Assembly: GCA_048634875.1 (NCBI GenBank)
Contig: JAIVZN010000001.1
Span: 3,858 to 67,857, forward strand
Reading direction: 5' to 3'
Origin: Deltaproteobacteria bacterium
GTDB taxonomy: Bacteria; CG03; SLGR01; JBDRKX01
Length of the DNA stretch: 64,000 nucleotides
The notes beneath the pieces are model-generated. The model searched no databases, had not been told where the DNA came from, and was given only the letters and a program-made list of their open reading frames with translations. Positions 3,916-61,795 of the stretch are shown in pieces. A program made the translations under genes and the position numbers. Position 1 is the stretch's first letter; every line of letters starts with the position of its first letter.

Positions 3916-3931
3916 AAATTCATTTCAACCG

Positions 3932-4030
3932 CAAATAAATCCTTTATTGAGACCTAAATGATGTATTTTTTGCGACTTGTGACTTTTTATAGAAACTATG
4001 AAAACTTGTTTGACCCGGCTCATGTCTGTT
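3932..4030. repeat. Dispersed intergenic hairpin repeat, family A, copy 1 (left half plus extension variant)
   Basis: taaatcctttattgagacctaaatgatgtattttttgcgacttgtgactttttat... shared with copies at 9043, 51567, 59077. Confidence 0.85.
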
Positions 4031-4957
4031 TCATGCCGTTTTACACATCTCATAAAAATTACACCATGGACATAACCTCCTATGTTTTGCCAATGGATAA
4101 TATTCTTTTTCCCTTGGTATATTATTTCCAGGATCAAGCAAGACTTCCTTCATTTCATCTATACTATGTTTAATTTCGTTTTCAGTCTCCTTAAGAGACT
4201 CCCTGGAAATAGCAATATCCAGAGTTTTACCTGTCCCTAAATATTCTGCTCTTCCAAGTATATTCTCCTCATTAATACCATATTTTTCCCTGATATACAT
4301 ACAGTAAACACTTATCTGGTTAGGATGGCTCGAATGCTCTTTCCCTGTCTTCCAGTCAACCACTACCCATTTGCCATTGGGTCCTTCAAAGACAAGATCA
4401 GGTATTGCATAAATCGGAGTATCAAAAAGCTCAAATGTATCCATATTCTCAGTAATTCTTATTTTGCACTCATCTTTTAGAATTTCCTTTACACTATCTG
4501 ATTTTATTATATTAGGCACAGATTTCTGCATTTTGTCTTTAATTTTCTCAACAATTTCTTTTAAAACTTTACCGCCATAGTAAAATTCATGCAACATGGA
4601 ATAACTCTTAGGATTTTTAAGCCATTCCTCTCGCTTATTTATGGATTCTTTCCACGCATTATTTAATATATCCCTTACTATATTTATAAGAATTTTTTCA
4701 TCAGGGAGTTTTCCTGTTTGCGTAATAGTATTACAGGTCTTTTCCGCTGCCTGATGTACAGCACTTCCTAGAAGTAGATGAAGCCCTGTCAGTTGCTTTA
4801 AACGGTACGCCTGTTTTGACTCTGGAGAAGCTTCTTCTTCCCATCCGTTATGAGAGAGATAGTAATTGTAATAATATCTTCTCTGACATTCACTGAATGT
4901 AGATTTTCTGGATGAAGACCAGCTCCATACGGGATATTCTGTTCTTTTATATGCCAT
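4031..4957 (-). CDS. PD-(D/E)XK nuclease superfamily protein, Cas4/AddB-like with predicted 4Fe-4S cluster (standalone, no CRISPR nearby)
   Basis: N-terminal SWSSSxxSTFxECxRRYYYNYY motif, catalytic D...VVDWKTGK (D/E-x-K) and C-terminal C-x2-C-x5-C (CPWCNFYEMC). Confidence 0.7.
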   Translation of the reverse strand: MAYKRTEYPVWSWSSSRKSTFSECQRRYYYNYYLSHNGWEEEASPESKQAYRLKQLTGLHLLLGSAVHQAAEKTCNTITQTGKLPDEKILINIVRDILNNAWKESINKREEWLKNPKSYSMLHEFYYGGKVLKEIVEKIKDKMQKSVPNIIKSDSVKEILKDECKIRITENMDTFELFDTPIYAIPDLVFEGPNGKWVVVDWKTGKEHSSHPNQISVYCMYIREKYGINEENILGRAEYLGTGKTLDIAISRESLKETENEIKHSIDEMKEVLLDPGNNIPREKEYYPLAKHRRLCPWCNFYEMCKTA

Positions 4958-9042: not shown

Positions 9043-9215
9043 CCATTTATTGAGTCCTAAATGATGCATTTTTTGCGAGCTTTAAGACTTTTGCCAAAGG
9101 CAAAAAGTCTCCGGAGCAACAAAATACATTTTTAGGGCTCAATTATTTTCACCCAGCTCCTGTACGCAGGAGCTGGATTCATCCGCTTTTGTGCTGGCTC
9201 GCCGGCATGTCCGTT
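9043..9215. repeat. Dispersed intergenic hairpin repeat family A, copy 2 (both halves plus extra hairpins)
   Basis: ccatttattgagtcctaaatgatgcattttttgcgagctttaagacttttgccaaaggcaaaaagtctccggagcaacaaaatacatttttagggctcaattattttcaccc, then cagctcctgtacgcaggagctg hairpin; region 8940-9040 also holds hairpin gggcttgataaatcaagccc. Confidence 0.85.
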
Positions 9216-20579: not shown

Positions 20580-21021
20580 TTATCTTTCCCCCTGCTTTTT
20601 CTATCTTTTCTTTAGCTTTTACTGACAGGCTGCACCCTGATACATTTATCTTTTTCTTAATTTCCCCATTACCTAAAACCTTAACTCTGTACTTACCTTT
20701 GATTAAACCTTTTTCTTTTAGCTTTTCAGGGGACACAACTTCTCCACTTTTAAATTTATCTGAAAGCTGACTGACATTAACTATCTCTATTTTTTCAGCA
20801 AACATCTTATTGCTGAAGCCTCTCTTTGGCACTCTTCTTGTAAGAGGCATCTGTCCGCCTTCAAAACTAACTTTCTTTGAAAGTCCTGTTCTATGGCCGC
20901 TTCCTCCCCTGCCACGACCGCAACTTCTTCCTTTACCGGAAGCCGGCCCGCGGCCTTTCCTGACTTTCTTTTTCTTTGAACCTTTAGCAGGCTGTATAGA
21001 ATCTATTCTTAATATATCCAT
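20572..21021 (-). CDS. rplO: 50S ribosomal protein L15 (true start MDILRI; ORF-track extension through repeat rejected)
   Basis: L15 glycine/arginine-rich N-terminal region; start codon at 21021-21019 directly abuts repeat family B. Confidence 0.9.
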   Translation of the reverse strand: MDILRIDSIQPAKGSKKKKVRKGRGPASGKGRSCGRGRGGSGHRTGLSKKVSFEGGQMPLTRRVPKRGFSNKMFAEKIEIVNVSQLSDKFKSGEVVSPEKLKEKGLIKGKYRVKVLGNGEIKKKINVSGCSLSVKAKEKIEKAGGKINA

Positions 21022-21027
21022 CTTCTT

Positions 21028-21136
21028 TAAGGAATGTGGTATGAGGTATGTGGGAGTAGGGAATAATATCTTGCTTTCTTCAGCGAAGCGTTCTTCCATC
21101 TTCTATCTTTCCTCATTCCTATACCCTCATTCTTCA
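21028..21136. repeat. Repeat family B copy (rpsE-rplO intercistronic hairpin element, long variant)
   Basis: aaggaatgtggtatgaggtatgtgggagtagggaataa...cctcattcctataccctcattcttc; imperfectly self-complementary arms. Confidence 0.9.
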
Positions 21137-21643
21137 TTATAATTCTTTCGCCTCTTTGCCTCTGCCTTCAGCTATACACTCTTTTGTTCTAAGTCTTTTT
21201 AAACCATTTATAGTGGCGTATACAACATTAAGGGAATTTCTGGAACGCAGGCACTTTGCAAAAATATTTTTAACACCTACTGCTGTAAGTACATCCCTTG
21301 CAGGACCTCCTGCAATAATTCCTGTTCCGGGACACGCAGGTTTTAATAGAATTTCAGCCGCTCCGCATCTTCCTATTATTGAATGCGGAATAGTAAAATC
21401 TTCAGTTAATGATACATTATTCATATTTTCTTTTGCTTTAGCAATACTCTTTTCTATTGATATTCTAACATCATTTGCTTTCCCGATAGCACAGCCAATT
21501 CTGCCATTTCCATCACCAACAACAGTTAGAGTAGAAAACCCGAACCTTTTCCCACCTTTTACAACTTTAGCTACCCGCTTTATATCAACTACTCTTTCTA
21601 TTAATTCCTGGCCTTCTTTCTGTAATAATCCTGACTTTTCCAT
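21137..21643 (-). CDS. rpsE: 30S ribosomal protein S5
   Basis: 168 aa; S5 dsRBD and C-terminal domain; no rpmD (L30) between rpsE and rplO. Confidence 0.95.
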   Translation of the reverse strand: MEKSGLLQKEGQELIERVVDIKRVAKVVKGGKRFGFSTLTVVGDGNGRIGCAIGKANDVRISIEKSIAKAKENMNNVSLTEDFTIPHSIIGRCGAAEILLKPACPGTGIIAGGPARDVLTAVGVKNIFAKCLRSRNSLNVVYATINGLKRLRTKECIAEGRGKEAKEL

Positions 21644-21738
21644 TAAACCTTTCCACCTTCCACTTTTTTGCCATTCAGCCGCTCGCTGACGCTACGCTTT
21701 TCATGTATAGACATGCACTCGCTCCTTCATACTTTCCA

Positions 21739-22038
21739 CTAAAATTCCAGTCCTCCTTCTCTTGCGCCTTCAGCAAGCTCCTTAACTGCACCATGGTACT
21801 TAAATTTACCGCGGTCATAATATACTTTTTTCACTTTTTTTTCAAGAGCTTTCCCGGCAACAAGTTTCCCTACTTCATAAGCCCGTTCTTTTGGACTCTC
21901 AAACTTTTTATTCTTTATATCAAATGAAAGCGACGACACACCTGTTACAACAATACCATTAAAATCATTTATTATCTGAGCATATATATGCCTGTTTGAC
22001 CTAAAAACCGCTAATCTATGCCTTTCTATCTTTCTCAT
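21739..22038 (-). CDS. rplR: 50S ribosomal protein L18
   Basis: 99 aa ending ...AREGGLEF; followed by unusual 95-nt GC-richer spacer before rpsE. Confidence 0.9.
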
Positions 22039-22595
22039 TTGCCAGTACCTGTAAAACTACCGCCGATAGCTGTTTTTCCTGCTTTCTTTCTTACCTTTTC
22101 ACCTTTATATCTTATGCCCGAGCCCTTATAGGGTTCTGGCGGTTGAATATCTCTTATTTCAGCGGATACCTCTCCAACTTTCTGTTTATCTATCCCTGAA
22201 ATTTCAATTATATTTTTCTCAACTTTTGCCTGAATCCCTTCAGGTAGCTGAAAATCAACAGAGTGGGAAAATCCAACTTCTAAAACCAGGCTCTTTCCCT
22301 GTACTTTTGCCTTTTTTCCCCTTCCTATAATTTCTAATTTTTTACTAAATCCTTCTTTAACACCTGTTACCATATTATATATAAGTGTCCTTGTCAGCCC
22401 GTGAAGACTCCTTAATTTTATAGAATCATTTTCCCTATTTATTATTATCTGCCCTTCCTCTATACGGACTTTTATCCCATCAGGTATTTTATATTCAAGT
22501 TTTTTCCCTGAAGACTCCACTGCTATATCCTGTCCGGATATACTGACATTGACACCCTCGGTTATCTTTATTGGCATTTTTCCTATTCTACTCAT
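22035..22595 (-). CDS. rplF: 50S ribosomal protein L6 (true start [11 protein letters not shown])
   Basis: L6 two-domain signature; start codon abuts repeat family B. Confidence 0.9.
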
Positions 22596-22601
22596 CTTAT
22601 T

Positions 22602-22684
22602 TAAGGAATGTGGTATGAGGTATGTGGGAGTAGGGAATAATTTTTTTCCCCTCATTCCTCATTCCTATACCCTCATTCTTCGTT
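22602..22684. repeat. Repeat family B copy (rpsH-rplF junction)
   Basis: Near-identical to 21028 and 24151 copies. Confidence 0.9.
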
Positions 22685-23083
22685 CTACCACACATATAAA
22701 ATTACTTCACCGCCAAGATGGTTCTTTCTGCATTCCTTATCAGTCAGCAAACCTCTTGAAGTTGATATTATTGCTCTTCCCAAACCCTCAAGTACTTTTG
22801 GAATGTTATCTACTCCAACATAAATCCTGCGGCTGAGATGTGAAATTCTCTTTATATCCTGTATTACAGAATCGCCATCCACCGTATATTTTAAATATAT
22901 TTTCAATATTCCCTGTTTGTTATCTTCAATATTTTTATAATTTGCAATATATCCCTCATCCTTTAAAAGGCGGGCAATCTCCTGCATTATTTTTGACGAC
23001 GAAACATCAACCTGGCTCTTTTTCCGCACAAGAGCATTTTTTACACGACAAATCATATCTGATATTGGATCTGTTACTACCAT
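22685..23083 (-). CDS. rpsH: 30S ribosomal protein S8
   Basis: 132 aa; S8 signature. Confidence 0.95.
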
Positions 23084-23262
23084 GATGATTTTACAACTCC
23101 CGGAATTTTTCCTTCAGACGCTAACTTTCTAAAACATAGCCTGCATATACCGAAATCTCTCATAAATGCACGCCTTCGCCCGCATAAATTGCATCTGTTA
23201 TACTTCTGTACCTTATACTTTGGTTCTCTCTTCTGTTTTACTACTAATGCTTTTCTTGCCAT
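23077..23262 (-). CDS. rpsZ: 30S ribosomal protein S14 type Z (zinc-binding)
   Basis: 61 aa with CxxC...CxxC. Confidence 0.92.
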
Positions 23263-23287
23263 CTTCCTTTTAACCTTCCATTTTCAA

Positions 23288-23836
23288 CTATTTAACAAAC
23301 GGAAATCCCAACAACTCAAACAGCTTTATGGATTTTTCCCTGTCTTTTTTGTCAGTAACAATTGTAATACTCATCCCTTTAATTGATTTTAGCTTATCCA
23401 TATCAACCTCAGGGAAAATTGATTCATCTGTAATACCTATAGTTAAATTTCCTTGAATATCAAACCTTCTTTTTAAACCGCTAAAATCTCTTATTCTCGG
23501 AATTGCTATCCTGAGCAGCTTTTCTAAAAACCCGTACATCATTTTTCCACGCAGAGTAACTCTGCATCCAATAGGCATTCCTTTTCTTAGTGTAAAATTA
23601 GATATGGCCTTTTTTGCCCTTGTAACAGAAGGTTGCTGCCCTGTTATTGAGACAATTTCATTCATAGCTTCTTCTAAAACACTTTTGTCGTCCTTTGCAG
23701 ATTTCAAACCCATATTGATCACTATTTTTTCTATTTCAGGAAGAGCATATACATTTTTAACCTTAAACTCTTTTAACATCTCGGGAATTACTTCCTCTGT
23801 ATATTTTTTATATAATAATGCTGATATCTGCCTCAT
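23288..23836 (-). CDS. rplE: 50S ribosomal protein L5
   Basis: 182 aa; L5 signature. Confidence 0.95.
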   Translation of the reverse strand: MRQISALLYKKYTEEVIPEMLKEFKVKNVYALPEIEKIVINMGLKSAKDDKSVLEEAMNEIVSITGQQPSVTRAKKAISNFTLRKGMPIGCRVTLRGKMMYGFLEKLLRIAIPRIRDFSGLKRRFDIQGNLTIGITDESIFPEVDMDKLKSIKGMSITIVTDKKDREKSIKLFELLGFPFVK

Positions 23837-24144
23837 ACAATCATCTCACCGCATTTCTTACAGACTCTTACTTTCTCGCCATCTTCTAACCTGTCAAACT
23901 TTATTCTTGTAGGCTGTGAACACTTTGGACATACAAGCTGAAGGTTTGAAATATGGACAGAAGCTTCTTTTTCTACAACTCCACCCGGATTCTGCTGGGT
24001 CGGACGTGTATGTCTCTTAACAATATTAATTTTTGAGACTATAACACGGTTAGAATTCGCAAATATTTTCATAACCTCGCCCTGCTTTCCCTTATCTTTA
24101 CCTTTTTTTACTATAACCGTATCTTTTTTCTTAATCTTTAACAT
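23833..24144 (-). CDS. rplX: 50S ribosomal protein L24 with C-terminal CxxC...CxxC zinc-ribbon extension
   Basis: KOW domain MLKIKKKDTVIVKKGKDKGKQG..., then CPKCSQPTRIKFDRLEDGEKVRVCKKCGEMIV. Confidence 0.88.
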   Translation of the reverse strand: MLKIKKKDTVIVKKGKDKGKQGEVMKIFANSNRVIVSKINIVKRHTRPTQQNPGGVVEKEASVHISNLQLVCPKCSQPTRIKFDRLEDGEKVRVCKKCGEMIV

Positions 24145-24150
24145 TTTCTT

Positions 24151-24231
24151 TAAGGAATGTGGTATGAGATATGTGGGAGAAGGGAATAAACATTTTTCCC
24201 TCATTCCTCATTCCTATACCCTCATTCTTCA
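24151..24231. repeat. Repeat family B copy (rplN-rplX junction)
   Basis: Near-identical to 21028 and 22602 copies. Confidence 0.9.
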
Positions 24232-24600
24232 TTATATTACCTCCGGAGCAAGTGAAATTATTTTTGTAAATTCTTTCTCTCTTAACTCCATTGCTATCGG
24301 ACCGAATACCCTGGTTCCTCTGGGTTGTTTTTTTTCATCTATTAAAACAGCGCCGTTATCATCAAATCTTACAACAGTTCCATCTTTCCTTTTAACAGGA
24401 TATTTAGTTCTAACTATCACTGCTTTTACTACCTCTCCCTTTGAAACACCGCTGGCAGGAATAGCATCCTTAACTGCGCCTACAATTATATCGCCAACCC
24501 TGGCGTATCTTTTTCTTGTACCTCCAAGTACATTAATACACTGTATTTTTTTTGCCCCGGAATTATCCACAACATTTAATAAGGTTTCCCTCTGAATCAT
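24232..24600 (-). CDS. rplN: 50S ribosomal protein L14 (start [10 protein letters not shown])
   Basis: L14 signature; ATGA overlap with rpsQ. Confidence 0.93.
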
Positions 24601-29282: not shown

Positions 29283-29594
29283 TTATGCCTTTATCTCCAC
29301 CCCGATGCCTGAAGGAAGCTCTAATTTACCAAGTTCATCAACTGTTACCGAAGTCGGATTATGTATGTAAATTAATCTCTTATGTATCCGCATTTCAAAT
29401 TGATCCATACCCCTTTTATCCACATGAGGCGACCTCAGTACTGAATATTTCTTTATTCTTGTCGGAAGCAGTATCGGGCCGGAAACCCTGGAGCCTGTTC
29501 TGGTAATTGTATCTACTATGCGCTTGACAGATTTATCAAGCATCCTGTGGTCATATCCCTTTAATTTAATCTGTATTTTCTGTTCAACCGCCAT
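29283..29594 (-). CDS. rpsJ: 30S ribosomal protein S10
   Basis: 103 aa. Confidence 0.95.
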
Positions 29595-30784
29595 TATTCA
29601 ACTACTTCAGCTACAACACCCGCTCCAACCGTATGTCCGCCTTCCCTTATCGCAAACCTGAGTCCCTGCTCCATTGCCACTGCCTGTATTAACTCGCCCT
29701 CTATATCCACATTATCGCCGGGCATCACCATCTCCCTGCCTTCAGGTAACTTTAACACTCCTGTCACATCTGTCGTACGAAAATAAAATTGAGGCCTGTA
29801 TCCGCTGAAAAACGGAGTGTGTCGCCCGCCTTCTTCCTTGCTTAATATATATACCTTCCCCTTAAACTTCTTATGCGGTGTTATCGTCTTAGGCGCCGCT
29901 ATCACCTGACCCCTCTCTATCTGCGTCTTATCTACACCTCGAAGCAACACTCCTATGTTGTCGCCGGCCTGCGCCTCTTCCATCTCCTTGCGAAACATCT
30001 CTACTCCTGTTACCACGGTCTCCTTACTGTCCATTAATCCCACTATCTCTACCTTGTCCGATACCTTTACCTTACCCCTCTCTACCCTGCCTGTCGCTAC
30101 TGTACCGCGCCCTGTTATTGAAAATACATCTTCTACGCTCATCAAAAACGGCTTATCAACTTCCCTGTCAGGCTGGGGTATATTCGCATCCAGCGCTTCC
30201 ATTAATTCCCCTATTACTTTACCTTCATCGCTATCCGCCTCACTATTTAACGCCTTTAACGCAGAACCCTTTATTATTGGTATATCATCTCCGGGAAACT
30301 CATATTTGTTTAATAATTCCCTTATCTCTAACTCTACTAACTCCAACAACTCAGGATCATCTACCTGATCTACCTTATTCATAAATACTACCATTGCAGG
30401 CACGCCTACCTGCCTCGCTAACAATATATGTTCCTTTGTCTGAGGCATCGGACCATCTGCCGCCGACACCACCAGTATCGCGCCGTCCATCTGCGCCGCT
30501 CCTGTTATCATATTCTTTATATAATCCGCATGACCGGGACAGTCTATATGCGCATAATGCCTGTTCTCTGTCTCATATTCCACATGCGCTGTCGCTATCG
30601 TTAAACCCCTCTCCTTTTCCTCGGGCGCATTGTCTATCTCATCTACATTCTTGCAGGATGCCAGTCCTTTGGAACTTAAATATCTCAATATCGCTGCTGT
30701 TAATGTCGTCTTCCCGTGATCTACATGCCCTATTGTCCCTACATTAACATGAGGCTTTGTCCTCTGAAATTTTTCCTTTGCCAT
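29594..30784 (-). CDS. tuf: Elongation factor Tu (copy 1, str-operon copy)
   Basis: 396 aa GHVDHGKTT...; ~98% identical at nt level to second copy at 45306-46496. Confidence 0.97.
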
Positions 30785-45062: not shown

Positions 45063-45140
45063 CTGGCAGGCCTGGCAGGACTTGAACCTGCAACCCCCGG
45101 TTTTGGAGACCGGTGCGCTAGCCAATTGCGCCACAGGCCT
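45063..45140 (-). tRNA. tRNA-Trp (anticodon CCA)
   Basis: Manual fold: AGGCCTG acceptor, anticodon loop CTCCAAA, T-arm GCAGGTTCAAGTCCTGC, encoded CCA. Confidence 0.85.
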
Positions 45141-45141
45141 T

Positions 45142-45306
45142 TTATCCCTTAATTGACTTATGCACCGTATGCTTTCTACAAAACCTACAGTGCTTCTTTA
45201 ATTCTAACTTATCCTGTCTGTGAAGTTTATTTCTTCTGTATGTATAGTTTCGGCGTTTACACTCCTGACATTCAAGATGCTGAACTATCCTATCCTTTTT
45301 TGCCAT
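45142..45306 (-). CDS. rpmG: 50S ribosomal protein L33 (not in ORF track)
   Basis: [54 protein letters not shown]; zinc-ribbon L33; start overlaps tuf stop (TAATG). Confidence 0.9.
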   Translation of the reverse strand: MAKKDRIVQHLECQECKRRNYTYRRNKLHRQDKLELKKHCRFCRKHTVHKSIKG

Positions 45307-46496
45307 TATTCAATTACCTCAGCTACAACACCAGCTCCAACCGTATGTCCGCCTTCCCTTATCGCAAACCTGAGTCCCTGCTCCATTGCCACTGCCTGTA
45401 TTAACTCGCCCTCCATATCCACATTATCTCCTGGCATCACCATCTCCCTGCCCTCTGGTAACTTTAACACTCCTGTCACATCTGTCGTACGAAAATAAAA
45501 TTGTGGCCTGTATCCGCTGAAAAACGGTGTGTGTCGCCCGCCTTCTTCTTTGCTTAATATATATATCTTCCCCTTGAACTTCGTGTGCGGTGTTATCGTC
45601 TTAGGCGCCGCTATCACCTGCCCCCTCTCTATCTGCGTCTTATCTACACCGCGCAGCAACACTCCTATGTTGTCGCCGGCCTGCGCCTCTTCCATCTCCT
45701 TGCGAAACATCTCTACTCCTGTTACCACGGTCTCCTTGCTTTCCATTAATCCCACTATCTCTACCTTGTCCGATACCTTTACCTTACCCCTCTCTACCCT
45801 GCCTGTCGCTACTGTACCGCGCCCTGTTATTGAAAATACATCTTCTACGCTCATCAAAAACGGCTTATCAACTTCCCTGTCAGGCTGGGGTATATTCGCA
45901 TCCAGCGCTTCCATTAATTCCCCTATTACTTTACCTTCATCGCTATCCGCCTCACTATTTAACGCCTTTAACGCAGAACCCTTTATTATTGGTATATCAT
46001 CTCCGGGAAACTCATATTTGTTTAATAATTCCCTTATCTCTAACTCTACTAACTCCAACAACTCAGGATCATCTACCTGATCTACCTTATTCATAAATAC
46101 TACTATTGCTGGCACGCCTACCTGCCTCGCTAATAATATATGTTCCTTTGTCTGAGGCATCGGACCATCTGCCGCCGACACCACCAGTATCGCGCCATCC
46201 ATCTGCGCCGCTCCTGTTATCATGTTCTTTATATAATCCGCATGACCGGGACAGTCTATATGCGCATAATGCCTCAAGTCTGTCTCATATTCCACATGCG
46301 CTGTCGCTATCGTCAATCCCCTCTCCTTTTCCTCGGGCGCATTGTCTATCTCATCTACATTCTTACAGGATGCCAGTCCTTTGGAACTTAAATACTTCAA
46401 TATCGCTGCCGTTAATGTCGTCTTCCCGTGATCTACATGCCCTATTGTCCCTACATTAACATGAGGCTTTGTCCTCTGAAATTTTTCCTTTGCCAT
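45306..46496 (-). CDS. tuf: Elongation factor Tu (copy 2, tufB-like, downstream of tRNA cluster)
   Basis: 396 aa; differs from copy 1 at ~6 residues. Confidence 0.97.
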
Positions 46497-46514
46497 ATCT
46501 TCCTCCTCTTTATT

Positions 46515-46570
46515 TCCGTAAAGCGTAAAGCGTAAATCGTGAAGTGTTTTTTTTTACCCTTTACGCTTTA
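46515..46570. repeat. Repeat family C hairpin between tRNA-Thr(GGT) and tuf
   Basis: ccgtaaagcgtaaagcgtaaatcgtgaagtgtttttttttaccctttacgctttactctttacg. Confidence 0.8.
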
Positions 46571-46576
46571 CTCTTT

Positions 46577-46652
46577 ACGACCATGGTGGAGCTGGGAACG
46601 GGATTCGAACCCGTGACCTCATGCTTACCATGCATGTGCTCTACCAGCTGAG
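46577..46652 (-). tRNA. tRNA-Thr (anticodon GGT)
   Basis: GCTGGGATAGCTCAGCTGGTAGAGCACATGCATGGTAAGCATGAGGTCACGGGTTCGAATCCCGTTCCCAGCTCCA. Confidence 0.88.
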
Positions 46653-46660
46653 CTATCCCA

Positions 46661-46712
46661 GCATCATAAACCGTAAAGCGTAAATCGTGAAGTGTTTTTC
46701 TCTTTACCCTTT
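46661..46712. repeat. Repeat family C hairpin between tRNA-Gly and tRNA-Thr(GGT)
   Basis: ccgtaaagcgtaaatcgtgaagtgtttttctctttaccctttacgctttac. Confidence 0.8.
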
Positions 46713-46714
46713 AC

Positions 46715-46788
46715 GCTTTACAACCCTGGAGCGGGTGATGGGGATCGAACCCACATTACTAGCTTGGAAGGCTAGGGCTTTACCACTA
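46715..46788 (-). tRNA. tRNA-Gly (anticodon TCC)
   Basis: GCGGGTGTAGCTTAGTGGTAAAGCCCTAGCCTTCCAAGCTAGTAATGTGGGTTCGATCCCCATCACCCGCTCCA. Confidence 0.88.
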
Positions 46789-46833
46789 AGCTACACCCGC
46801 CTTACTAATTCAAATTTTGCATTTTTCCACCTT

Positions 46834-46919
46834 GGTGGACAGGGGAGGATTCGAACCTCCGTAGGACAACGTCCGACAGATTTACAGTCTGTTGCCTTTA
46901 ACCTCTCAGCCACCTGTCC
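46834..46919 (-). tRNA. tRNA-Tyr (anticodon GTA), long variable arm
   Basis: GGACAGG...CAGACTGTAAATCTG anticodon arm, variable arm CGGACGTTGTCC, T-arm GGAGGTTCGAATCCTCC, CCA encoded. Confidence 0.85.
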
Positions 46920-47002
46920 TCCTCTATATTTTAGGAATATGAGATGAGGTATACGGAACTAGAGAACAAAAAAAATTTTTCCTCATTCCTCATTCCTTCT
47001 AT
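46920..47002. repeat. Degenerate repeat family B copy filling the tRNA-Thr(TGT)/tRNA-Tyr spacer
   Basis: aggaatatgagatgaggtatacggaactagagaac...cctcattcctcattcct shares both arms with the spc-operon copies. Confidence 0.65.
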
Positions 47003-47078
47003 TGGAGCCGATGACAGGAATTGAACCCGTAACCTGCTCATTACAAGTGAGCTGCTCTGCCAGTTGAGCTACATCGGC
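47003..47078 (-). tRNA. tRNA-Thr (anticodon TGT)
   Basis: GCCGATGTAGCTCAACTGGCAGAGCAGCTCACTTGTAATGAGCAGGTTACGGGTTCAATTCCTGTCATCGGCTCCA. Confidence 0.88.
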
Positions 47079-50537: not shown

Positions 50538-51560
50538 TCATTTTATCAGTCTGCCGCATTCTTCCATGACCAGTTTTCTTAATTTATCTTTCTCTTCAGT
50601 CTCCATGAAGGCAGCTTCAACACCATTCATTATAATCTCAACAAGTTCACTTATAGAAATTCCTATCTCCATTGCCTTTTCAAATTCGTATGTTAAATCT
50701 ATTCCGCTTACACCCCTGTCATCTGTGTTTAATGTAACTTTAATGCTACTTGCAATAAATTTTTTTACCGGATGAGTATTATAATCTTTAACAACCTGTG
50801 TATGTATATTTGATGTAAGACATATTTCAAACGGGATTCTTTTTAAAGCCATTTCACGCATTAATTTTTCATCTTCAACAAGTGTAACACCATGCCCTAT
50901 TCTATCAGCGCCTATCTGTACAGCTTCCCTGATATATTCAGGACCTGCTGCTTCGCCTGCATGAATAGTTACAGATACTCCCTCATTTTTGCATATCTGA
51001 ATTGGTTTTTCAAAATCCCTCAGTGGGAATTTATTCTCATCGCCAGCAACATCAATGCCAGAGACACCCTCATTCCTTAATTCCACCGCACATTTTGCAG
51101 CCTGGATTGAATCCTCCAGCGGAGTTCCGCGATACAAACACAGCAGCACCCCGCACTTTATGGGAAATTCTTTTTCACCCTTTTTAACTCCTCTTAGTAC
51201 TGCTTCCACAACATCAGGTATGGGGAATTTTTCAGTTTTCTGAAGCACAGGAGCAAACCTTATCTCAAGATACTTCACATTTTCTTCAGCGCAATCCCTG
51301 CATAATTCATATGATATCCTCTCCTGTGCATATGGGTTTGTCAAAAGCGGGTAAAAGACTTCAAATCTCTTTAGAAAGTCGCTTAAACATTTACAATTAA
51401 TGGACACTCTTACAAATTTTCTCAAATCCTTTACATTGTCAGCAGGCAAAGAAAAATTCTGCATTTTAGCAAGCTCCAAAATCGTAGAAGTTCTTATGGA
51501 GCCATCTAAATGACAATGTAAATCAACTTTAGGTAATTTTCTTATAATTTCCTCTTTCAC
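50538..51560 (-). CDS. add: Adenosine deaminase (GTG start)
   Basis: 340 aa; LPKVDLHCHLDGS metal-binding signature. Confidence 0.88.
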   Translation of the reverse strand: MKEEIIRKLPKVDLHCHLDGSIRTSTILELAKMQNFSLPADNVKDLRKFVRVSINCKCLSDFLKRFEVFYPLLTNPYAQERISYELCRDCAEENVKYLEIRFAPVLQKTEKFPIPDVVEAVLRGVKKGEKEFPIKCGVLLCLYRGTPLEDSIQAAKCAVELRNEGVSGIDVAGDENKFPLRDFEKPIQICKNEGVSVTIHAGEAAGPEYIREAVQIGADRIGHGVTLVEDEKLMREMALKRIPFEICLTSNIHTQVVKDYNTHPVKKFIASSIKVTLNTDDRGVSGIDLTYEFEKAMEIGISISELVEIIMNGVEAAFMETEEKDKLRKLVMEECGRLIK

Positions 51561-51566
51561 TTGTAA

Positions 51567-51700
51567 ATAAATCCTTTATTGAGACCTAAATGATGTATTT
51601 TTTGCGACTTGTGACTTTTTAGTCTCCGGAGCAACAAAATGTATTTTTAGGGCTCGATTATTTTCACCCACTTTTGTGCCGGCGAGCCGGCTTGTCCGTT
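51567..51700. repeat. Repeat family A copy 3 (compact, both halves)
   Basis: taaatcctttattgagacctaaatgatgtattttttgcgacttgtgactttttagtctccggagcaacaaaatgtatttttagggctcgattattttcaccc...; its terminal AAAGGA supplies the SD for add. Confidence 0.85.
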
Positions 51701-56946: not shown

Positions 56947-58257
56947 TTAATTAATTACTTCATAGATCAAAGATGGCGGTTCTACTTTTTTCTCACTAAA
57001 CTCCAGTGAACTCAGATAATCCATGGCAACCCGGCTCATATCAGCAACTTTTGATGAATATAAGCAGGCAACCGCCTCTCCAACTGAAACCATGTCTCCT
57101 ATCTTTTTATAGACTTCTATCCCTGATGTATTGTCTATTTTTTCTCCTACCCGCTCTCTTCCCGCACCGATAGTTAGAGCGCACATGCCAATACTTCTTG
57201 TATCTATTGATTTAATAAATCCCGCTACAGTGCTTGTTACTTCAAATTTATATTTAGCCGGCTTTAATAAGTTATCCGGTTCATCCGGGACCTCTGCAGT
57301 TCCCCCCTGTTCAGCTATCATCTGACGGAATTTTTTCAGGGCTTTTCCGTTACTTAAATTCTCCTTAGCCATCTTTTTAGCTTCGCGGGTATCGCGAGCT
57401 GCATCCCCCATTACAAGCATTCTTGAAGCCAGTTCAATTATTACTGTTTTTATATCCTCAAACCCTTCCTCTCCTTTCATTATCCGGATAGCCTGTTTGA
57501 TTTCCATGCCATTTCCTATTACACGCCCGAGCGGCTGGCTCATATCAGAGATTATAGCTGCCATCTTCCTTTTATAGGATTTCCCAATGCTTATCATGCT
57601 TTCTGCAAGTTTCCTGGCATCTTCAAATTCCCTCATAAATGCCCCTGAACCGGTCTTCACATCGAGAACCAGTCCATCTGCGCCTTCAGCAATTTTTTTA
57701 CTCATTATGCTTGCAGATATAAGGGGAATGCTGTCCACTGTTGCTGTAACATCTCTCAAAGAATACATTTTCTTATCAGCAGGGGCAATATTTTCAGTCT
57801 GTCCAATCATTGCAACACCAATCTTTTTTAACTGCTCCAAAAATTCATGGGGAGTTAAATCAACCCTGAAGCCCGGTATTGATTCTAATTTATCAAGGGT
57901 GCCGCCTGTATGGCCTAAACTTCTTCCGCTCATCATAGGTACCACCACACCAAATGAGGCAACAAGGGGCGCAAGAGTAATTGATACCCCATCCCCTACC
58001 CCGCCTGTTGAGTGTTTATCTATGGCTTTTCCTCCTGTCTCACCCAAATTTATTTGCTCCCCCGATTCCACCATAATACTTGTAAACTCATAAAGTTCCT
58101 CAGTATTCATTCCTTTAAAATAAACTGCCATTAAAAATGCTGACATCTGATAGGGAGGAACTTTCCCATTTAAAAAACCCTCCACCATAAACTGCAGCTC
58201 CCGATGCGACAGGGACAAACCCTCTCTCTTTTTTAATATTATATTATAAGTATTCAA
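56947..58257 (-). CDS. pdp: Pyrimidine-nucleoside (thymidine) phosphorylase
   Basis: 436 aa; DKHSTGGVGD phosphate-binding signature. Confidence 0.9.
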   Translation of the reverse strand: MNTYNIILKKREGLSLSHRELQFMVEGFLNGKVPPYQMSAFLMAVYFKGMNTEELYEFTSIMVESGEQINLGETGGKAIDKHSTGGVGDGVSITLAPLVASFGVVVPMMSGRSLGHTGGTLDKLESIPGFRVDLTPHEFLEQLKKIGVAMIGQTENIAPADKKMYSLRDVTATVDSIPLISASIMSKKIAEGADGLVLDVKTGSGAFMREFEDARKLAESMISIGKSYKRKMAAIISDMSQPLGRVIGNGMEIKQAIRIMKGEEGFEDIKTVIIELASRMLVMGDAARDTREAKKMAKENLSNGKALKKFRQMIAEQGGTAEVPDEPDNLLKPAKYKFEVTSTVAGFIKSIDTRSIGMCALTIGAGRERVGEKIDNTSGIEVYKKIGDMVSVGEAVACLYSSKVADMSRVAMDYLSSLEFSEKKVEPPSLIYEVIN

Positions 58258-59035
58258 GTAATTTTCTGATAAATATTTTAAATTTTTCCTGAGCCATTTG
58301 AGTAGTTTTGATAACTTCCTCGTGGGATAATGGACTGCCTGTAATACCTGCAGCCATATTTGTTGTCATGGATAATCCTAACACCTTAATTCCTAAACTA
58401 TTTGCAACAATAACTTCAGGCACTGTTGACATTCCTACAATATCTGCCCCTATCTTACGAGCCATTCTTATCTCAGCAGGTGTTTCATAAGAAGGGCCGC
58501 TCATAGCTAAGTATACACCCTCTTTTATTTCCATATTAAGCATACTGGCAGTCTGATGCGCAAGTTCTCTTAATTTACTGTTATAAGCATCAGTCATATC
58601 AATAAAATCAGCACTACCTATCAAAGGATTGGCGCCCATCATATTTATATGATCGGAAATAACAACAATATCTCCTGGCAAAAAATTTTCATTCACTGCT
58701 CCAGTAGCACTTGTAACAATTAATTTTTCTACTCCAAGTGCAGCCATAACTCTTACAGGAAAACAAACTTCCCTGATAGTATAACCTTCATAATAATGCA
58801 CCCTTCCTGAAAGAGCTACTATATCTACACCTGAAAATCGCCCTGCTACAACTTCCCCTTTGTGACCCTCTACAGTTAATGTAGGAAATTTTGGTATCTC
58901 TTCAAATTTAATTGTAACAGAATCCTTAAACTCATCTGTTAAATCTCCAAAACCGCTACCAAGTATTATTCCTGTTTTTGGTTGAACTTTTATCCCTGAT
59001 TTAATTTTTTCTAATGCTTCTAATACTTTATCCAT
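58244..59035 (-). CDS. punA: Purine nucleoside phosphorylase (PNP family 1, trimeric PunA type)
   Basis: 263 aa; GIILGSGFG...VALSGRVHYYEG...MSGPSYETPAE motifs. Confidence 0.88.
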   Translation of the reverse strand: MDKVLEALEKIKSGIKVQPKTGIILGSGFGDLTDEFKDSVTIKFEEIPKFPTLTVEGHKGEVVAGRFSGVDIVALSGRVHYYEGYTIREVCFPVRVMAALGVEKLIVTSATGAVNENFLPGDIVVISDHINMMGANPLIGSADFIDMTDAYNSKLRELAHQTASMLNMEIKEGVYLAMSGPSYETPAEIRMARKIGADIVGMSTVPEVIVANSLGIKVLGLSMTTNMAAGITGSPLSHEEVIKTTQMAQEKFKIFIRKLLEYL

Positions 59036-59076
59036 ATAAAATACTTACCTTTCGACATAATTCCTTTCATGTGTAA

Positions 59077-59292
59077 GTAAATCCTTTATTGAGACCTAAA
59101 TGATGTATTTTTTGCGACTTGGGACTTTTTAGTGAAACTATGCCGTTAAAAAACTAAAATTTGTTTGACTCAGCTCTTGCCTGCAAGGGCTGGGGAGTTT
59201 TTTAGTTTTAGGCATAGTTTCATATGCCAAAGGCAAAAAGTCTCCGGAGCAACAAAATACATTTTTAGGGCTCAATTATTTTCATCCTCTTT
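59077..59292. repeat. Repeat family A copy 4 (extended variant with nested hairpin insert); right end replaced by group II intron
   Basis: Shares both halves with copies 2 and 3; diverges from them at ...attattttcat|cctctttgag. Confidence 0.85.
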
Positions 59293-59524
59293 GAGTGAAT
59301 CTGTAGAATAGAGAATTGGCGTAGTAGTTTAGGTTAAGCCTATTTGTTTCTGCCCCTTTCGTCTGGCAGTGCCTCAATATCTTATCCATGCTCTATCTCC
59401 AACTCCCCCTCATCAAACCATGCAGGAAGTTCTCCTTCACACGGCTTTCCGATAACCACTCGTCTAAAAGCTTTCACTATTTAGCCACTTTCTATTGGTA
59501 GTTAAATAATATATCCCCAACACC

Positions 59525-59773
59525 TTATACAGAATAACGGTCTGGATATTTGTTAAATCCAAATCCTTTCTTCTGTTTGCGTTTTTGTATAAAACGTCTA
59601 ACTTTATTCTCTGTGTAATATCGGAGTTTACCAAACCATTTTGAGGAATTTCCTTCAATGAAGTAGTTAGCCCACCCTCTTATTACAGGATTAAGCCTTG
59701 AAACAATTACCTCTGCCTTTTCTGGTATTCGGTGATTGGTTATCTTTCTTATCCTGTTTCTGATTACACTCAT
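59525..59773 (-). pseudogene. Group II intron maturase (X/GIIM) domain in a different frame from the RT ORF; no En domain
   Basis: 82 aa; LNPVIRGWANYF hallmark; separated from RT ORF by a ~45-nt frame change. Confidence 0.75.
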
Positions 59774-59818
59774 AGCTTTAGCTGATGGAAAGGATATGAT
59801 ATACCTTATCTTCTTTCT

Positions 59819-60769
59819 TTAATCATATACCTTCTTAAAACTAAAGCCAAGAAAGGTGAATTTGTCTTTCTCCATATCCAGTATTTTTGTCTTCTCCTTA
59901 TTTAGCTTTAAGTTTAATCCCTTAATTACTTTAATTAAGGTCTCCCATATTTCCTGTGGATACCTACAAGATAGAATGACAAAATCATCTGCATACCTTA
60001 TGAGATGAGCAGCAAGTTTGGATTCATATCTTTTCTTCCAGATTTTATCTAACTCATTAAGATAGATATTCGCCAGAAGAGGCGATATTATCCCTCCTTG
60101 TGGAGTGCCAGATATGTTATTTCTTAAGATTGCCTTTTCACTTACTACTCCTGCTGTTAGCCATTGTTTTATTAGCCTGAGAATGTTCTTATCACATACC
60201 CTTTTAGCTATTAGTTCTAACAAACGGTTATGGGATATAGTGTCAAAGTATGAGCTTAAGTCAGCGTCAACTACATATCTATAGCCCCTATTCAATAGCC
60301 TTTTAATTATCTTCAAGGCTTGATGGGCTGAACGCTTCGGTCTAAATCCATATGAACAATCCTGAAATTCAGCTTCAAAAATAGGTTCTATTACTATCTT
60401 TACTGCCATCTGTGCCACTCTATCCTTGACAGTAGGAATTCCTAAAGGTCTTTTAGTTTTATCAGGTTTGGATATATAGACTCTTTTGACCTTGTCGGGT
60501 CCATAAACCTTCTTCTTTAGTTCTCTTTGGATTCCTTTAAGAAATTCTTCTACCCCCATTTGCACAATCTCTTCAATCGTTTTGTCATCTATCCCTGCAC
60601 ACCCTTTATTACTGCAAACCCTTCTCCAACTCTCCACAAAAACATCCCACCGATAGACCTTATCATACAGAGTATAAAAACGCTTTACCTCCTTTCGCTT
60701 TGCCTTTAGATATAGCCCCCTCTGAAATTCCCGAACCTTTTCTCGGGGAGTTAATAGCCTTTTTGGCAA
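59819..60769 (-). CDS. Group II intron reverse transcriptase (RT domain; ORF terminates before maturase domain)
   Basis: 316 aa; ...PQGGIISPLLANIYL..., IRYADDFVIL, GFSFKK. Confidence 0.9.
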   Translation of the reverse strand: MPKRLLTPREKVREFQRGLYLKAKRKEVKRFYTLYDKVYRWDVFVESWRRVCSNKGCAGIDDKTIEEIVQMGVEEFLKGIQRELKKKVYGPDKVKRVYISKPDKTKRPLGIPTVKDRVAQMAVKIVIEPIFEAEFQDCSYGFRPKRSAHQALKIIKRLLNRGYRYVVDADLSSYFDTISHNRLLELIAKRVCDKNILRLIKQWLTAGVVSEKAILRNNISGTPQGGIISPLLANIYLNELDKIWKKRYESKLAAHLIRYADDFVILSCRYPQEIWETLIKVIKGLNLKLNKEKTKILDMEKDKFTFLGFSFKKVYD

Positions 60770-61795
60770 TCTCCCAGTCCTTCCTTCGGGGGCATAGTTA
60801 ATAATGCCCCTTCACTCTGTCTTAGTTTTGTTGTCTCTTGACTTCATAAGTTCGCCTAAAAAACAGCCATTTAGGCTGTTTTTCTTTATGTCTCCGTTTA
60901 TGAGTATATCCGACCACCTTAATAACCTCCTTTGACTTCGGATTTCCCTTATACAAAGAAGCCTTTCGTTATCAAGGCTCTCCCAAGTTCCCTTCGTAAT
61001 CTTTCTCAGCATACCGCCCCTGATACCCCGAGTAGAGTCACCCCTTCTTACTCCTGTTAATCCAAGATGACTGTCGGGCTTCCCTCAAACATGAAAAGGT
61101 CGCCTCTACTTCTTAATGAACTAACGAGTCTACTTATAGGTTCATTCACATTACGGTCTGCTGTTTTGCGTCTCCCAACTAAATCGGGATTTGTCGAGTG
61201 GCTAAAGCTTCGAGATTAGTCCCTTATCTTCACTCCTCGCTACATAACCGAACAGGAAATTATTATGACTGACACCTTTCAGTCAGTTAGATTACAAAGA
61301 GCTTTTCTTGACATGCCATGTCCCTTTCTTATTATTGTTATATAATACATAGTTTTTAATTGCTTATCAAATTTTTTACCAACAATATCTCCGACAATAT
61401 AAATCAATGGGACAATATATACTATTTTAATCAAAGTTATTTTAGCACAAATTTTTCTTATGGGCAAATATGAGTCTTATCCCAAGACTGGATGGGTCAA
61501 GATATTTATTATTAAGGGTATGTTCAACATTACGAAAGATATTTGAAATATATGAGCAAGCGAAAAGACGATGTTGGCAATTACAATTAGAGTTTCAATA
61601 ATTGGAATAGTTGTTAATAACTTTTTGATATACAGGGATAAGGGGGATAAAAGGACAAGTGCATCCAAAAGTCTGGGTTTTGCCTGAATATATAGGGAAA
61701 TCTGGTTAGTACGGTGTAATTCCTTGACTTTTATTCCAAAGAAAGAAATATAGGATAGATTTTTTCAGCTAAAAAGCTGATTTTGGCGGAAGCCA

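Follow-up and report, generated by a model that had tools for sequence, protein, structure and literature searches.

The window, by which we mean the whole 64,000-nucleotide stretch of DNA that was analysed, contains on its minus strand a bacterial group II intron of ordinary type (59303-61316; 2,014 nt), present there in a single copy. Taken as a whole, the locus is very probably explained by an endonuclease-less intron that inserted long ago through EBS1/IBS1 pairing, has since decayed neutrally, and is separate from the family A repeat next to it. The region is best annotated as a group II intron pseudo-element rather than as two independent genes for RT and maturase; apart from its correct annotation, the locus is of little importance.

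Extent and ribozyme parts of the intron

The first-pass annotation had placed a minus-strand group II intron in this region, and its presence is supported by a match to the Rfam model RF02003 (63.7 bits), a match to RF00029 over domains V and VI, and matches to the Pfam families RVT_1 and GIIM. The intron sits in a leader, with a promoter-like region on one side and a nucleoside-phosphorylase operon on the other. Rfam covariance models, which had been proposed as a check, located the domains; both ends of the intron were fixed by comparison with related introns at other insertion sites. As delimited in this way, and in keeping with the Rfam matches, the EBS1/IBS1 covariation, and the common 3' end, the intron is complete and runs from 5' GCAUG to UCUAC 3'. 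Its 5' end, at 61316, is set by a 7-bp EBS1/IBS1 pairing that covaries across six distinct sites. In this pairing, the EBS1 loop of domain I (CAUGUUU; 61087-61093, minus strand; intron positions 224-230) matches IBS1, the last 7 nt of the 5' exon (GGACAUG; 61317-61323, minus strand), with two G-U pairs included. Complementarity between the domain I loop (intron positions 220-230) and the last 7 nt of the intron's own 5' exon was found in the window and in the related loci L003/L006, L005, L050, L052/L135, and L136/L137. The L004 intron fits the pattern by inspection and L007 does not, and a scan for complementarity, the only approach used for EBS2/IBS2, returned no consistent site. The 3' end, at 59303, is marked by a terminal ...UCUAC that is common to 5 distinct introns and beyond which their flanks diverge. 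Removal of the intron is predicted to give the ligated minus-strand exon junction ...GGGACAUG joined to AGAUUCACUC... (GGACAUG then AGAUUC).

Three other placements of the ends were considered and dropped. A 5' end at 61314, which aligns AUGUC with the GUGCC of the relatives, was rejected on two grounds: in every relative, the end of the EBS1/IBS1 pairing is located another 2 nt upstream, and the homologous pentanucleotide in L136/L137 is GUGUG. A start of the element at approximately 61458-61475, where the sister allele L001 departs from the window, was rejected because the 5' exon is shared with L130, L132, L133, and L138. This breakpoint is a strain difference upstream of the leader, and L001 has, within its first 300 nt, a poly-G run of the kind typical of junk sequence at contig ends. 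For L005, an alternative 3' end suggested by Rfam (position 4031) was set aside in favor of the ...UCUAC common to the five introns.

Within these limits, the 5' part of domain I (61146-61281, minus strand) carries the match to RF02003 (group-II-D1D4-4; gathering score of 49; E 1.2e-11). The 5'-terminal pentanucleotide GCAUG (61312-61316, minus strand) aligns with the GUGUG of L136/L137 and with the GCGUG or GCGCG of the other relatives, and the terminus of the lineage, which directly follows IBS1, reads GCGYG and is homologous to GUGYG. Since the sister allele L138 has GCGUG at the same insertion site, the A3 of GCAUG is a mutation specific to the window; this G3-to-A change could be tolerated or compensated.

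In domain V (59415-59447, minus strand), the lower stem has 9 bp and includes the AGC triad, and the upper stem has 4 bp, with a bulge of 2 nt (CU) and a loop of 5 nt. The domain scores 36.7 bits with RF00029, which is under the gathering score of 40, and its pairing is backed by covariation, with 13/13 pairs kept in 5 introns and 1 compensatory pair. The first-pass annotation was right about this domain, which it had placed at 59414-59448 with its AGC triad and an 8-bp lower stem. In two relatives, L004 and L006, a second intron is nested within domain V (twintrons). Domain VI (59303-59411, minus strand) is unusually long, with a 13-bp basal helix, a bulged branch-point A at 59309 (7th from the 3' end), and a distal extension of ~80 nt; the intron terminates in ...UAC at 59303 (AY type). 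Pairing in the basal helix is complete (100%) across 5 introns, 5 of its pairs having changed on both sides, and the distal part is common to L052/L135 and shorter in L003, L005, and L136. When domain V and the basal domain VI helix were evaluated together, they were 100% paired with 6 compensatory pairs, and 0 of 500 shuffles reached the observed values.

Across 201 ribozyme columns that are otherwise invariant in 7 relatives, the window differs at 22. This divergence falls within the relatives' mutual range (2-42), and part of it consists of compensatory changes, so a degree of constraint may still act on the RNA. Judged by sequence, the ribozyme core apart from the GCAUG terminus (EBS1, domain V, and domain VI with its branch-point A) looks intact. 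Domain IVa contains a lineage-specific insertion of ~45 nt (60854-60898, minus strand), found once in the window, which carries a terminator-like hairpin at 60858-60885 (CAGCC-UAAAU-GGCUG, then U6) that a terminator scan lists on the plus strand. This insertion is also present in L001, L130, and L138 and is absent from all relatives in other organisms.

Lesions in the intron-encoded protein and in sister alleles

The intron-encoded protein (IEP) pseudogene, comprising RT and X/maturase domains, spans 59464-60847 on the minus strand, from an ATG at 60845-60847 to a restored-frame stop, TAG, at 59464-59466. As the first-pass annotation had described, it includes an RT open reading frame with YADD (59819-60769; Pfam RVT_1, E 3.7e-39) and a maturase segment with RGWANYF (59525-59773; Pfam GIIM, E 2.2e-15). 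These two segments had been assigned to different frames, which proved incorrect: they are in the same frame (60769 - 59773 = 996 = 332 x 3), with a single TAA between them. In a tblastn search with the intact relative P0001, residues 6-445 aligned in a single frame from 60847 to 59534 with 75.7% identity, and residues 446-467 aligned in the next frame. The proposal of a decaying intron was sound, but the frameshift lies not between RT and maturase but at 59533/59534, where there is an extra T. Identity to the closest intact IEPs, which have lengths of 452-476 aa, is 72-77%. An endonuclease domain is absent, as had been claimed, and the intact relatives stop ~35 aa past domain X.

The damage to the window IEP comprises three lesions, all on the minus strand. 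A nonsense TGA at codon 12 (60812-60814) is CGA in L001 and L138. The in-frame TAA between the RT and X domains (59819-59821) is GAA (Glu) in L138 and ATA or GGA in more distant relatives. Finally, the extra T at 59533-59534, a +1 change and the only frameshift in the window IEP, removes the last ~22 residues, with LYKVLGIYYLTTNRKWLNSESF still readable in the next frame. As read from the DNA, the IEP gene is killed by these two stop codons and one frameshift, and we infer that the intron is at present unable to move by itself; an intact copy elsewhere in the genome could supply the maturase in trans.

All sister alleles share the insertion site of the window intron, and the damage is independent in each. 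L001/L129, from a second NCBI assembly, carry a TAA and an extra T identical to those of the window. L138 is 96% identical and has GCGUG, CGA, and GAA at three positions that are mutated in the window, along with indels of its own (-1, +4, and -7). In L130/L132/L133, three deletions have left an intron remnant of ~290 nt. A search of the sister strains for an intron-free (empty) version of the locus found none, as each strain has either the intron or a remnant of it. That these strains share one insertion but differ in its damage points to an old insertion that is decaying neutrally and not to an assembly error. The sister alleles, some full length with point lesions, another full length with indels, and others reduced to a ~290-nt remnant, offer a small, clean illustration of the speed at which a non-essential intergenic intron decays in bacteria.

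In the history that we propose, an endonuclease-less group II intron would have reverse-spliced, presumably, into the leader upstream of the nucleoside-phosphorylase operon, with its target picked through the 7-bp EBS1/IBS1 pairing with the unique sequence GGACAUG. The insertion would date to the common ancestor of several closely related strains. Later decay, which appears to have been neutral, would have introduced the codon-12 TGA, the RT/X TAA, and the +1 frameshift near the C-terminus of the window IEP, and during this decay the RNA 5' terminus would have mutated from GCGUG to GCAUG. The neighboring family A element would be a separate MITE-like repeat in the same intergenic region.

Two other readings of the damaged intron were weighed against this history. 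If the stops and the frameshift were sequencing or assembly errors, a possibility raised in the first-pass annotation, the intron would be intact and active. Multi-copy elements are often misassembled in metagenome bins, and a SNP cluster in L001, confined to the D1-D4a part of the intron, could reflect allele mixing. However, the TAA and the extra T recur identically in the second NCBI assembly, the window holds three independent lesions, and the different disabling indels of the 96%-identical L138, together with the ~290-nt remnant in L130, form the pattern expected of real decay, which makes the error reading most improbable. We consider it similarly far-fetched that the dead intron has been co-opted as a regulatory part of the leader of the nucleoside-phosphorylase operon, controlling it, for instance, via the terminator-like hairpin or an internal promoter. 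The intron does lie between promoter-like hexamers (61370-61342; 10/12 matches) and the operon, but such matches number 11 compared with 9.3 in shuffled sequence and show no excess. All sister alleles, the L130 remnant included, retain the ~45-nt insertion with its hairpin and U-tract, and ~160 nt upstream of the intron are conserved among strains that differ further upstream; shared ancestry alone, however, predicts retention in a few closely related strains, and the deletions in L130 look haphazard.

The neighboring family A repeat

Family A occurs at four loci in the window as intergenic, non-coding elements of about 120-230 bp with imperfect inverted termini of ~35 bp. Copy 4 (long form; 59059-59292) is complete, lies outside the intron, and is separated from it by a unique 3'-exon spacer (59293-59302, minus strand). 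Short direct repeats flank two of the copies (TTTCAC/TTTCAC at 51549-51675 and TTTCAT/TTTCAT at 59059-59292), although four copies are too few to prove target-site duplication. In size, inverted termini, copy-variable short direct repeats, and intergenic non-coding position, family A resembles MITE-like bacterial repeats; in contrast to these, no parent transposon was identified and only four copies were seen. Family A gave no Rfam match even at E = 1 and its RNA fold is unremarkable (z = -0.74), so its interpretation as a structured RNA or a known family was dropped.

The first-pass annotation had noted that copy 4 diverges from the other copies at approximately 59294 and had suggested that the intron, or its 3' flank, had taken the place of the element's right end. 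The divergence itself was confirmed, with the match to the other family A copies ceasing at approximately 59287-59292. The replacement was not, as copy 4 has the same right end as the copies at 9046-9155 and 51549-51675; family A naturally terminates in ...ATTATTTTCAY, and the intron 3' end at 59303 falls 10-17 nt beyond this point. This short distance is one of two observations that favor a view of the repeat as the homing or retrotransposition target of the intron, or the reverse, the other being that the copy at 51549-51675 has GGACAAG, one mismatch from IBS1, ~30 nt past its right end. Target recognition by group II introns, however, takes place mainly in the 5' exon, which here is unique sequence that pairs with EBS1 (IBS1, 61317-61323), and the repeat lies on the opposite, 3'-exon side of the intron, from +11 onward. 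Copy 4 is, moreover, complete, with TTTCAT on both sides. The flanks of eight related intron loci, which represent 7 distinct insertion sites, are unrelated and lack family A sequence. A search for family A elements lacking an intron, as had been recommended, showed that the other three copies in the window are intron free. Both the targeting of the repeat and the replacement of its right end are therefore very unlikely, and no mechanistic link between the family A repeat and the intron should be drawn.

Relationship to known group II introns

Bacterial group II introns with endonuclease-less IEPs are found in IEP classes A, C, D, E, F, and g1-g4 (PMC3552965, PMC4424553). The window intron is like these in its six-domain ribozyme, its domain IV open reading frame for RT and X/maturase without a D/En region, its EBS1/IBS1 target recognition, and its domain VI branch-point A, while its lineage differs in having GCGYG instead of GUGYG and a domain VI of ~60-110 nt. 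Class C (IIC) is exemplified by GsI-IIC and the Eubacterium rectale intron (PDB 6ar1 and 7uim) and by B.h.I1 (PMC1702495). Among proteins of solved structure, IIC RTs are the best matches to the window IEP (~214 bits, compared with 180 bits for a IIB RT), a slight margin over IIB/IIA in similarity scores against PDB proteins. Domain I of the window intron is likewise compact, with EBS1 ~225 nt from the 5' end, and the match to RF02003 is shared with the introns L011 and L013, which directly follow intrinsic terminators. IIC introns have a short IBS1/EBS1 pairing of 3-4 bp and typically no IBS2/EBS2, whereas the IBS1/EBS1 pairing of the window subfamily is 7 bp. No strong, terminator-like stem-loop was found in the 50-nt 5' exons of the window intron and 7 relatives, whose folding energies range from -1 to -13 kcal/mol and are mostly weak, in contrast to the clear terminators of L011 and L013 (-19 to -25 kcal/mol). 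The window intron thus differs from the IIC pattern, in which the intron inserts directly after an intrinsic terminator or attC stem-loop. Assignment to a class by PDB similarity, by the Rfam D1-D4 models, and from the literature was attempted, with no conclusive outcome from any of them.

We tentatively raise the possibility, which we regard as doubtful, that the window intron and its relatives represent an undescribed structural variety of endonuclease-less introns that is IIC-like in size and Rfam match. Its four distinguishing traits would be a conserved C2 (GCGYG), a 7-bp EBS1 without terminator targeting, a domain VI of 60-110 nt, and a domain V into which a second intron has repeatedly inserted. 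The C2 terminus, the long domain VI, and the domain V twintron might interest specialists in group II introns, as variations on known themes.

Degenerate or fragmented group II introns are known in bacteria as "introns with degenerate IEPs" (PMC4424553), and the window intron resembles them, with no substantive difference, in its IEP inactivated by point mutations, its intergenic site, and its further-deleted sister remnants. Altered 5' termini and shifted 5' splice sites have been described among fungal rRNA introns and in a Clostridium tetani intron (PMC4424553, PMC4024640). The window terminus also departs from GUGYG with the junction still defined by IBS1/EBS1; unlike in those introns, the change here is a single conserved U2 to C in the subfamily, with no shift of the splice site, and L136/L137 keep GUGUG. 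Among the relatives, which come from groundwater or sediment, the closest with names belong to Nitrospinota and Omnitrophica MAGs.

Boundaries and identity of the intron

The minus strand of the window carries a single, complete group II intron (59303-61316), identified by Rfam, Pfam and comparison with related introns gathered from metagenome and genome contigs. The first-pass annotation had correctly recognized it, and both ends can now be placed; the element is real, but it is an ordinary example of a degenerate group II intron. The D1-D4 model RF02003 matches 61146-61281 with 63.7 bits (gathering score, 49), and under relaxed thresholds the domain V/VI model RF00029 matches 59303-59449 with 36.7 bits, a long domain VI insertion holding it just short of the gathering score. 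Pfam RVT_1 matches the open reading frame (ORF) at 59819-60769 (E = 3.7e-39), and the group II maturase domain GIIM matches the segment at 59525-59818 (E = 2.2e-15); the YADD and RGWANYF motifs are both found in these ORF segments. No second copy was detected in the 64-kb window by tblastn and blastn.

Among eight related loci, homology at the 5' end begins at G(C/U)G(Y)GCCAAG. In the window intron, a domain I loop (EBS1; intron positions 220-230) is a perfect complement of the final 7 nt of the intron's own 5' exon (IBS1), with CAUGUUU facing GGACAUG. At other insertion sites the pairs are CUAACGG with CCGUUAG (L003 and L006), AAACUGC with GCAGUUU (L005), GUUCUGA with UCAGAAC (L050), UUAUACG with CGUAUAA (L052/L135), ACAACGU with ACGUUGU (L136/L137) and, where the pattern fits by inspection, AACAAAG with CUUUGUU (L004); L007 has no such match. 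This covariation places the 5' splice site directly ahead of the GCGYG whose first G is window position 61316. Because L136/L137 have a canonical GUGUG at these five positions, the GCGYG of the subfamily is a GUGYG whose second base is C. Five distinct introns share the 3' end ...UCUAC and diverge directly after it, setting the intron's 3' end at 59303. The near-identical 5' exon targets of L003 and L006 (ATGAATCCCGTTAG and ATGAGCCCCGTTAG), which come from different samples, suggest that the beginning of a small ORF serves as a conserved homing site.

Lesions in the intron-encoded protein and its sister alleles

The first-pass annotation had placed the reverse transcriptase (RT) and maturase of the intron-encoded protein (IEP) in different frames. 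The two ORFs in fact share one frame, with a single TAA between them, and the 467-residue IEP of an intact relative (P0001) aligns by tblastn in one frame, at 75.7% identity, from 60847 to 59534; the final 22 residues alone fall in the next frame. The IEP gene therefore has three lesions, all on the minus strand: codon 12 is TGA (60812-60814), the TAA (59819-59821) separates RT from X, and one extra T (59533/59534) removes the conserved C terminus. After the extra T the shifted frame reads ...YLYKVLGIYYLTTNRKWLNSESF; the C terminus of the relatives reads ...YLYGKLGLYYLTTNRLRLSSENL. The reported disruption thus stands, but its description does not, as there are two stops and a frameshift that lies near the C terminus, not between RT and maturase. 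The absence of an endonuclease domain was borne out in the window and in all intact relatives.

Sister loci with the same insertion site were recovered from other assemblies via near-identical versions of the neighboring phosphorylase gene. L001/L129 (GCA_048634415.1) shares the TAA and the extra T, reads CGA where the window has TGA and carries a cluster of single-nucleotide polymorphisms in D1-D4a. L138, 96% identical to the window over 1826 nt and with an identical 5' exon, has GCGUG as its 5' terminus, reads codon 12 as CGA and has GAA in place of the TAA; its ORF bears indels of its own (-1, +4 and -7). In L130, L132 and L133, about 290 nt of intron is left (L130:5647-6000) after three deletions, one in D1, one of ~100 nt at the ORF N terminus between AGGGGGC repeats, and one running from the ORF to the 3' end; the adjoining family A repeat is also shortened to its outer termini. 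Because one insertion site holds differently damaged alleles, the insertion is ancestral to these strains. An assembly error, earlier offered as a source of the frameshift, is very unlikely, since the lineages share the insertion but carry differing damage. The stop codons in the window are single-base changes from sense codons kept in a sister allele. The other reading offered, a decaying intron, is supported by the separate lesions, a pattern that would be the signature of neutral decay.

The intergenic region and family A

Genes of divergent orientation flank the intron. Downstream, past family A copy 4, is a purine-nucleoside phosphorylase gene (58244-59035, minus strand) in one operon with a pyrimidine-nucleoside phosphorylase gene (56947-58257, minus strand). 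About 160 nt upstream of the intron is conserved among strains and contains promoter-like hexamers; such matches are not commoner than in shuffled sequence. The strains are alike from the operon up to ~61475 and wholly different beyond it: a large gene for a secreted protein (plus strand, from about 61905) follows in the window and an ECF sigma-factor cluster in L130, and a third sequence, including a poly-G run, makes up the first 300 nt of L001.

Family A, a small repeat, occurs at 3917-4000 (left half only), 9046-9155 (with a ~70-nt insertion at its left end), 51549-51675 and 59059-59292 (the long copy 4). Its imperfect inverted termini of ~35 bp, and the flanking direct repeats of two copies, which match within a copy but vary between copies (TTTCAC/TTTCAC and TTTCAT/TTTCAT), make it look like a MITE; it matches no Rfam family, and its RNA fold is of no unusual stability. 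A palindrome nested in copy 4 includes a strong terminator-like hairpin on the plus strand (59169-59194), and two other copies adjoin GC-rich hairpins at their right ends (9155 and 51675). The first-pass annotation proposed that the intron had replaced the right end of copy 4. However, copy 4 shares its end point with the other copies, which means that no part was replaced, and the last base of the intron is 10-17 nt beyond. Its suggestion that the repeat is a homing target is likewise unsupported: target recognition sits on the opposite side, in unique sequence, family A is absent from the flanks of relatives at seven other distinct sites, and the other family A copies in the window lack the intron. 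The intron and copy 4 just occupy one intergenic region, and the proposed link between them does not hold.

Ribozyme state and classification

A composite alignment covering five introns shows full (100%) pairing in domain V and in the basal helix of domain VI (13 bp, with A 59309 bulged), and six pairs are changed on both sides; none of 500 shuffles matched these values, and slid controls were only 38-52% paired. This lineage has an unusually long domain VI, ~105 nt in the window and L052/L135 and ~60-65 nt in L003, L005 and L136. Domains V and VI of the window intron are predicted to be intact; EBS1 still matches its own exon, and several window-specific domain I substitutions are compensatory. 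Of 201 columns that are otherwise invariant, 22 set the window apart from seven relatives; about ten of the 22 are alignment noise around an insertion, and the figure falls inside the relatives' range against each other. The clear defect in the ribozyme would be the change of G3 to A at the 5' terminus, present also in L001 and absent from L138. Domain IVa holds an extra ~45 nt (60854-60898, minus strand) shortly before the IEP start; this insertion carries a near-perfect terminator-like hairpin, AAAAACAGCC UAAAU GGCUGUUUUUU, and a U-tract (60858-60885). It is found in all sister alleles, even the ~290-nt remnant of L130, and in none of the relatives outside this host lineage.

The best solved-structure matches of the IEP are, marginally, IIC RTs (214 bits versus 180 for a IIB RT). 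RF02003 scores higher on introns of Paenibacillus (L013) and Dehalobacter (L011) that lie directly after intrinsic terminators, and insertion at such positions is IIC behavior. In contrast to class C, the window's subfamily has a 7-bp EBS1, and its 5' exons lack a strong terminator-like stem-loop; we therefore did not adopt that class.

In L004 (from ~4391) and L006 (from ~2065, with a second RF02003 match at 2089-2233), a second group II intron is nested in the outer domain V at an identical position, after GGAAAGCCGUGU. The two loci come from independent sources, a Logan contig and a Nitrospinota MAG. The nested pair would be a twintron, whose inner intron must leave before the outer domain V forms. 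Elsewhere in the window, two nearly identical EF-Tu (tuf) genes on the minus strand (29594-30784 and 45306-46496) account for repeat D1 (300 nt, 95% identical); one adjoins S10/L3 ribosomal protein genes, and five clustered tRNA genes (45067-47078) lie beside the other. At 21019-24245, a sequence of ~95-130 nt (CATCTT.TTTAAGGAATGTGGTATGAGGTATGTGGGAG...) occurs three times, spaced ~1.55 kb apart; the copies probably lie within upstream regions common to tandem paralogous genes.
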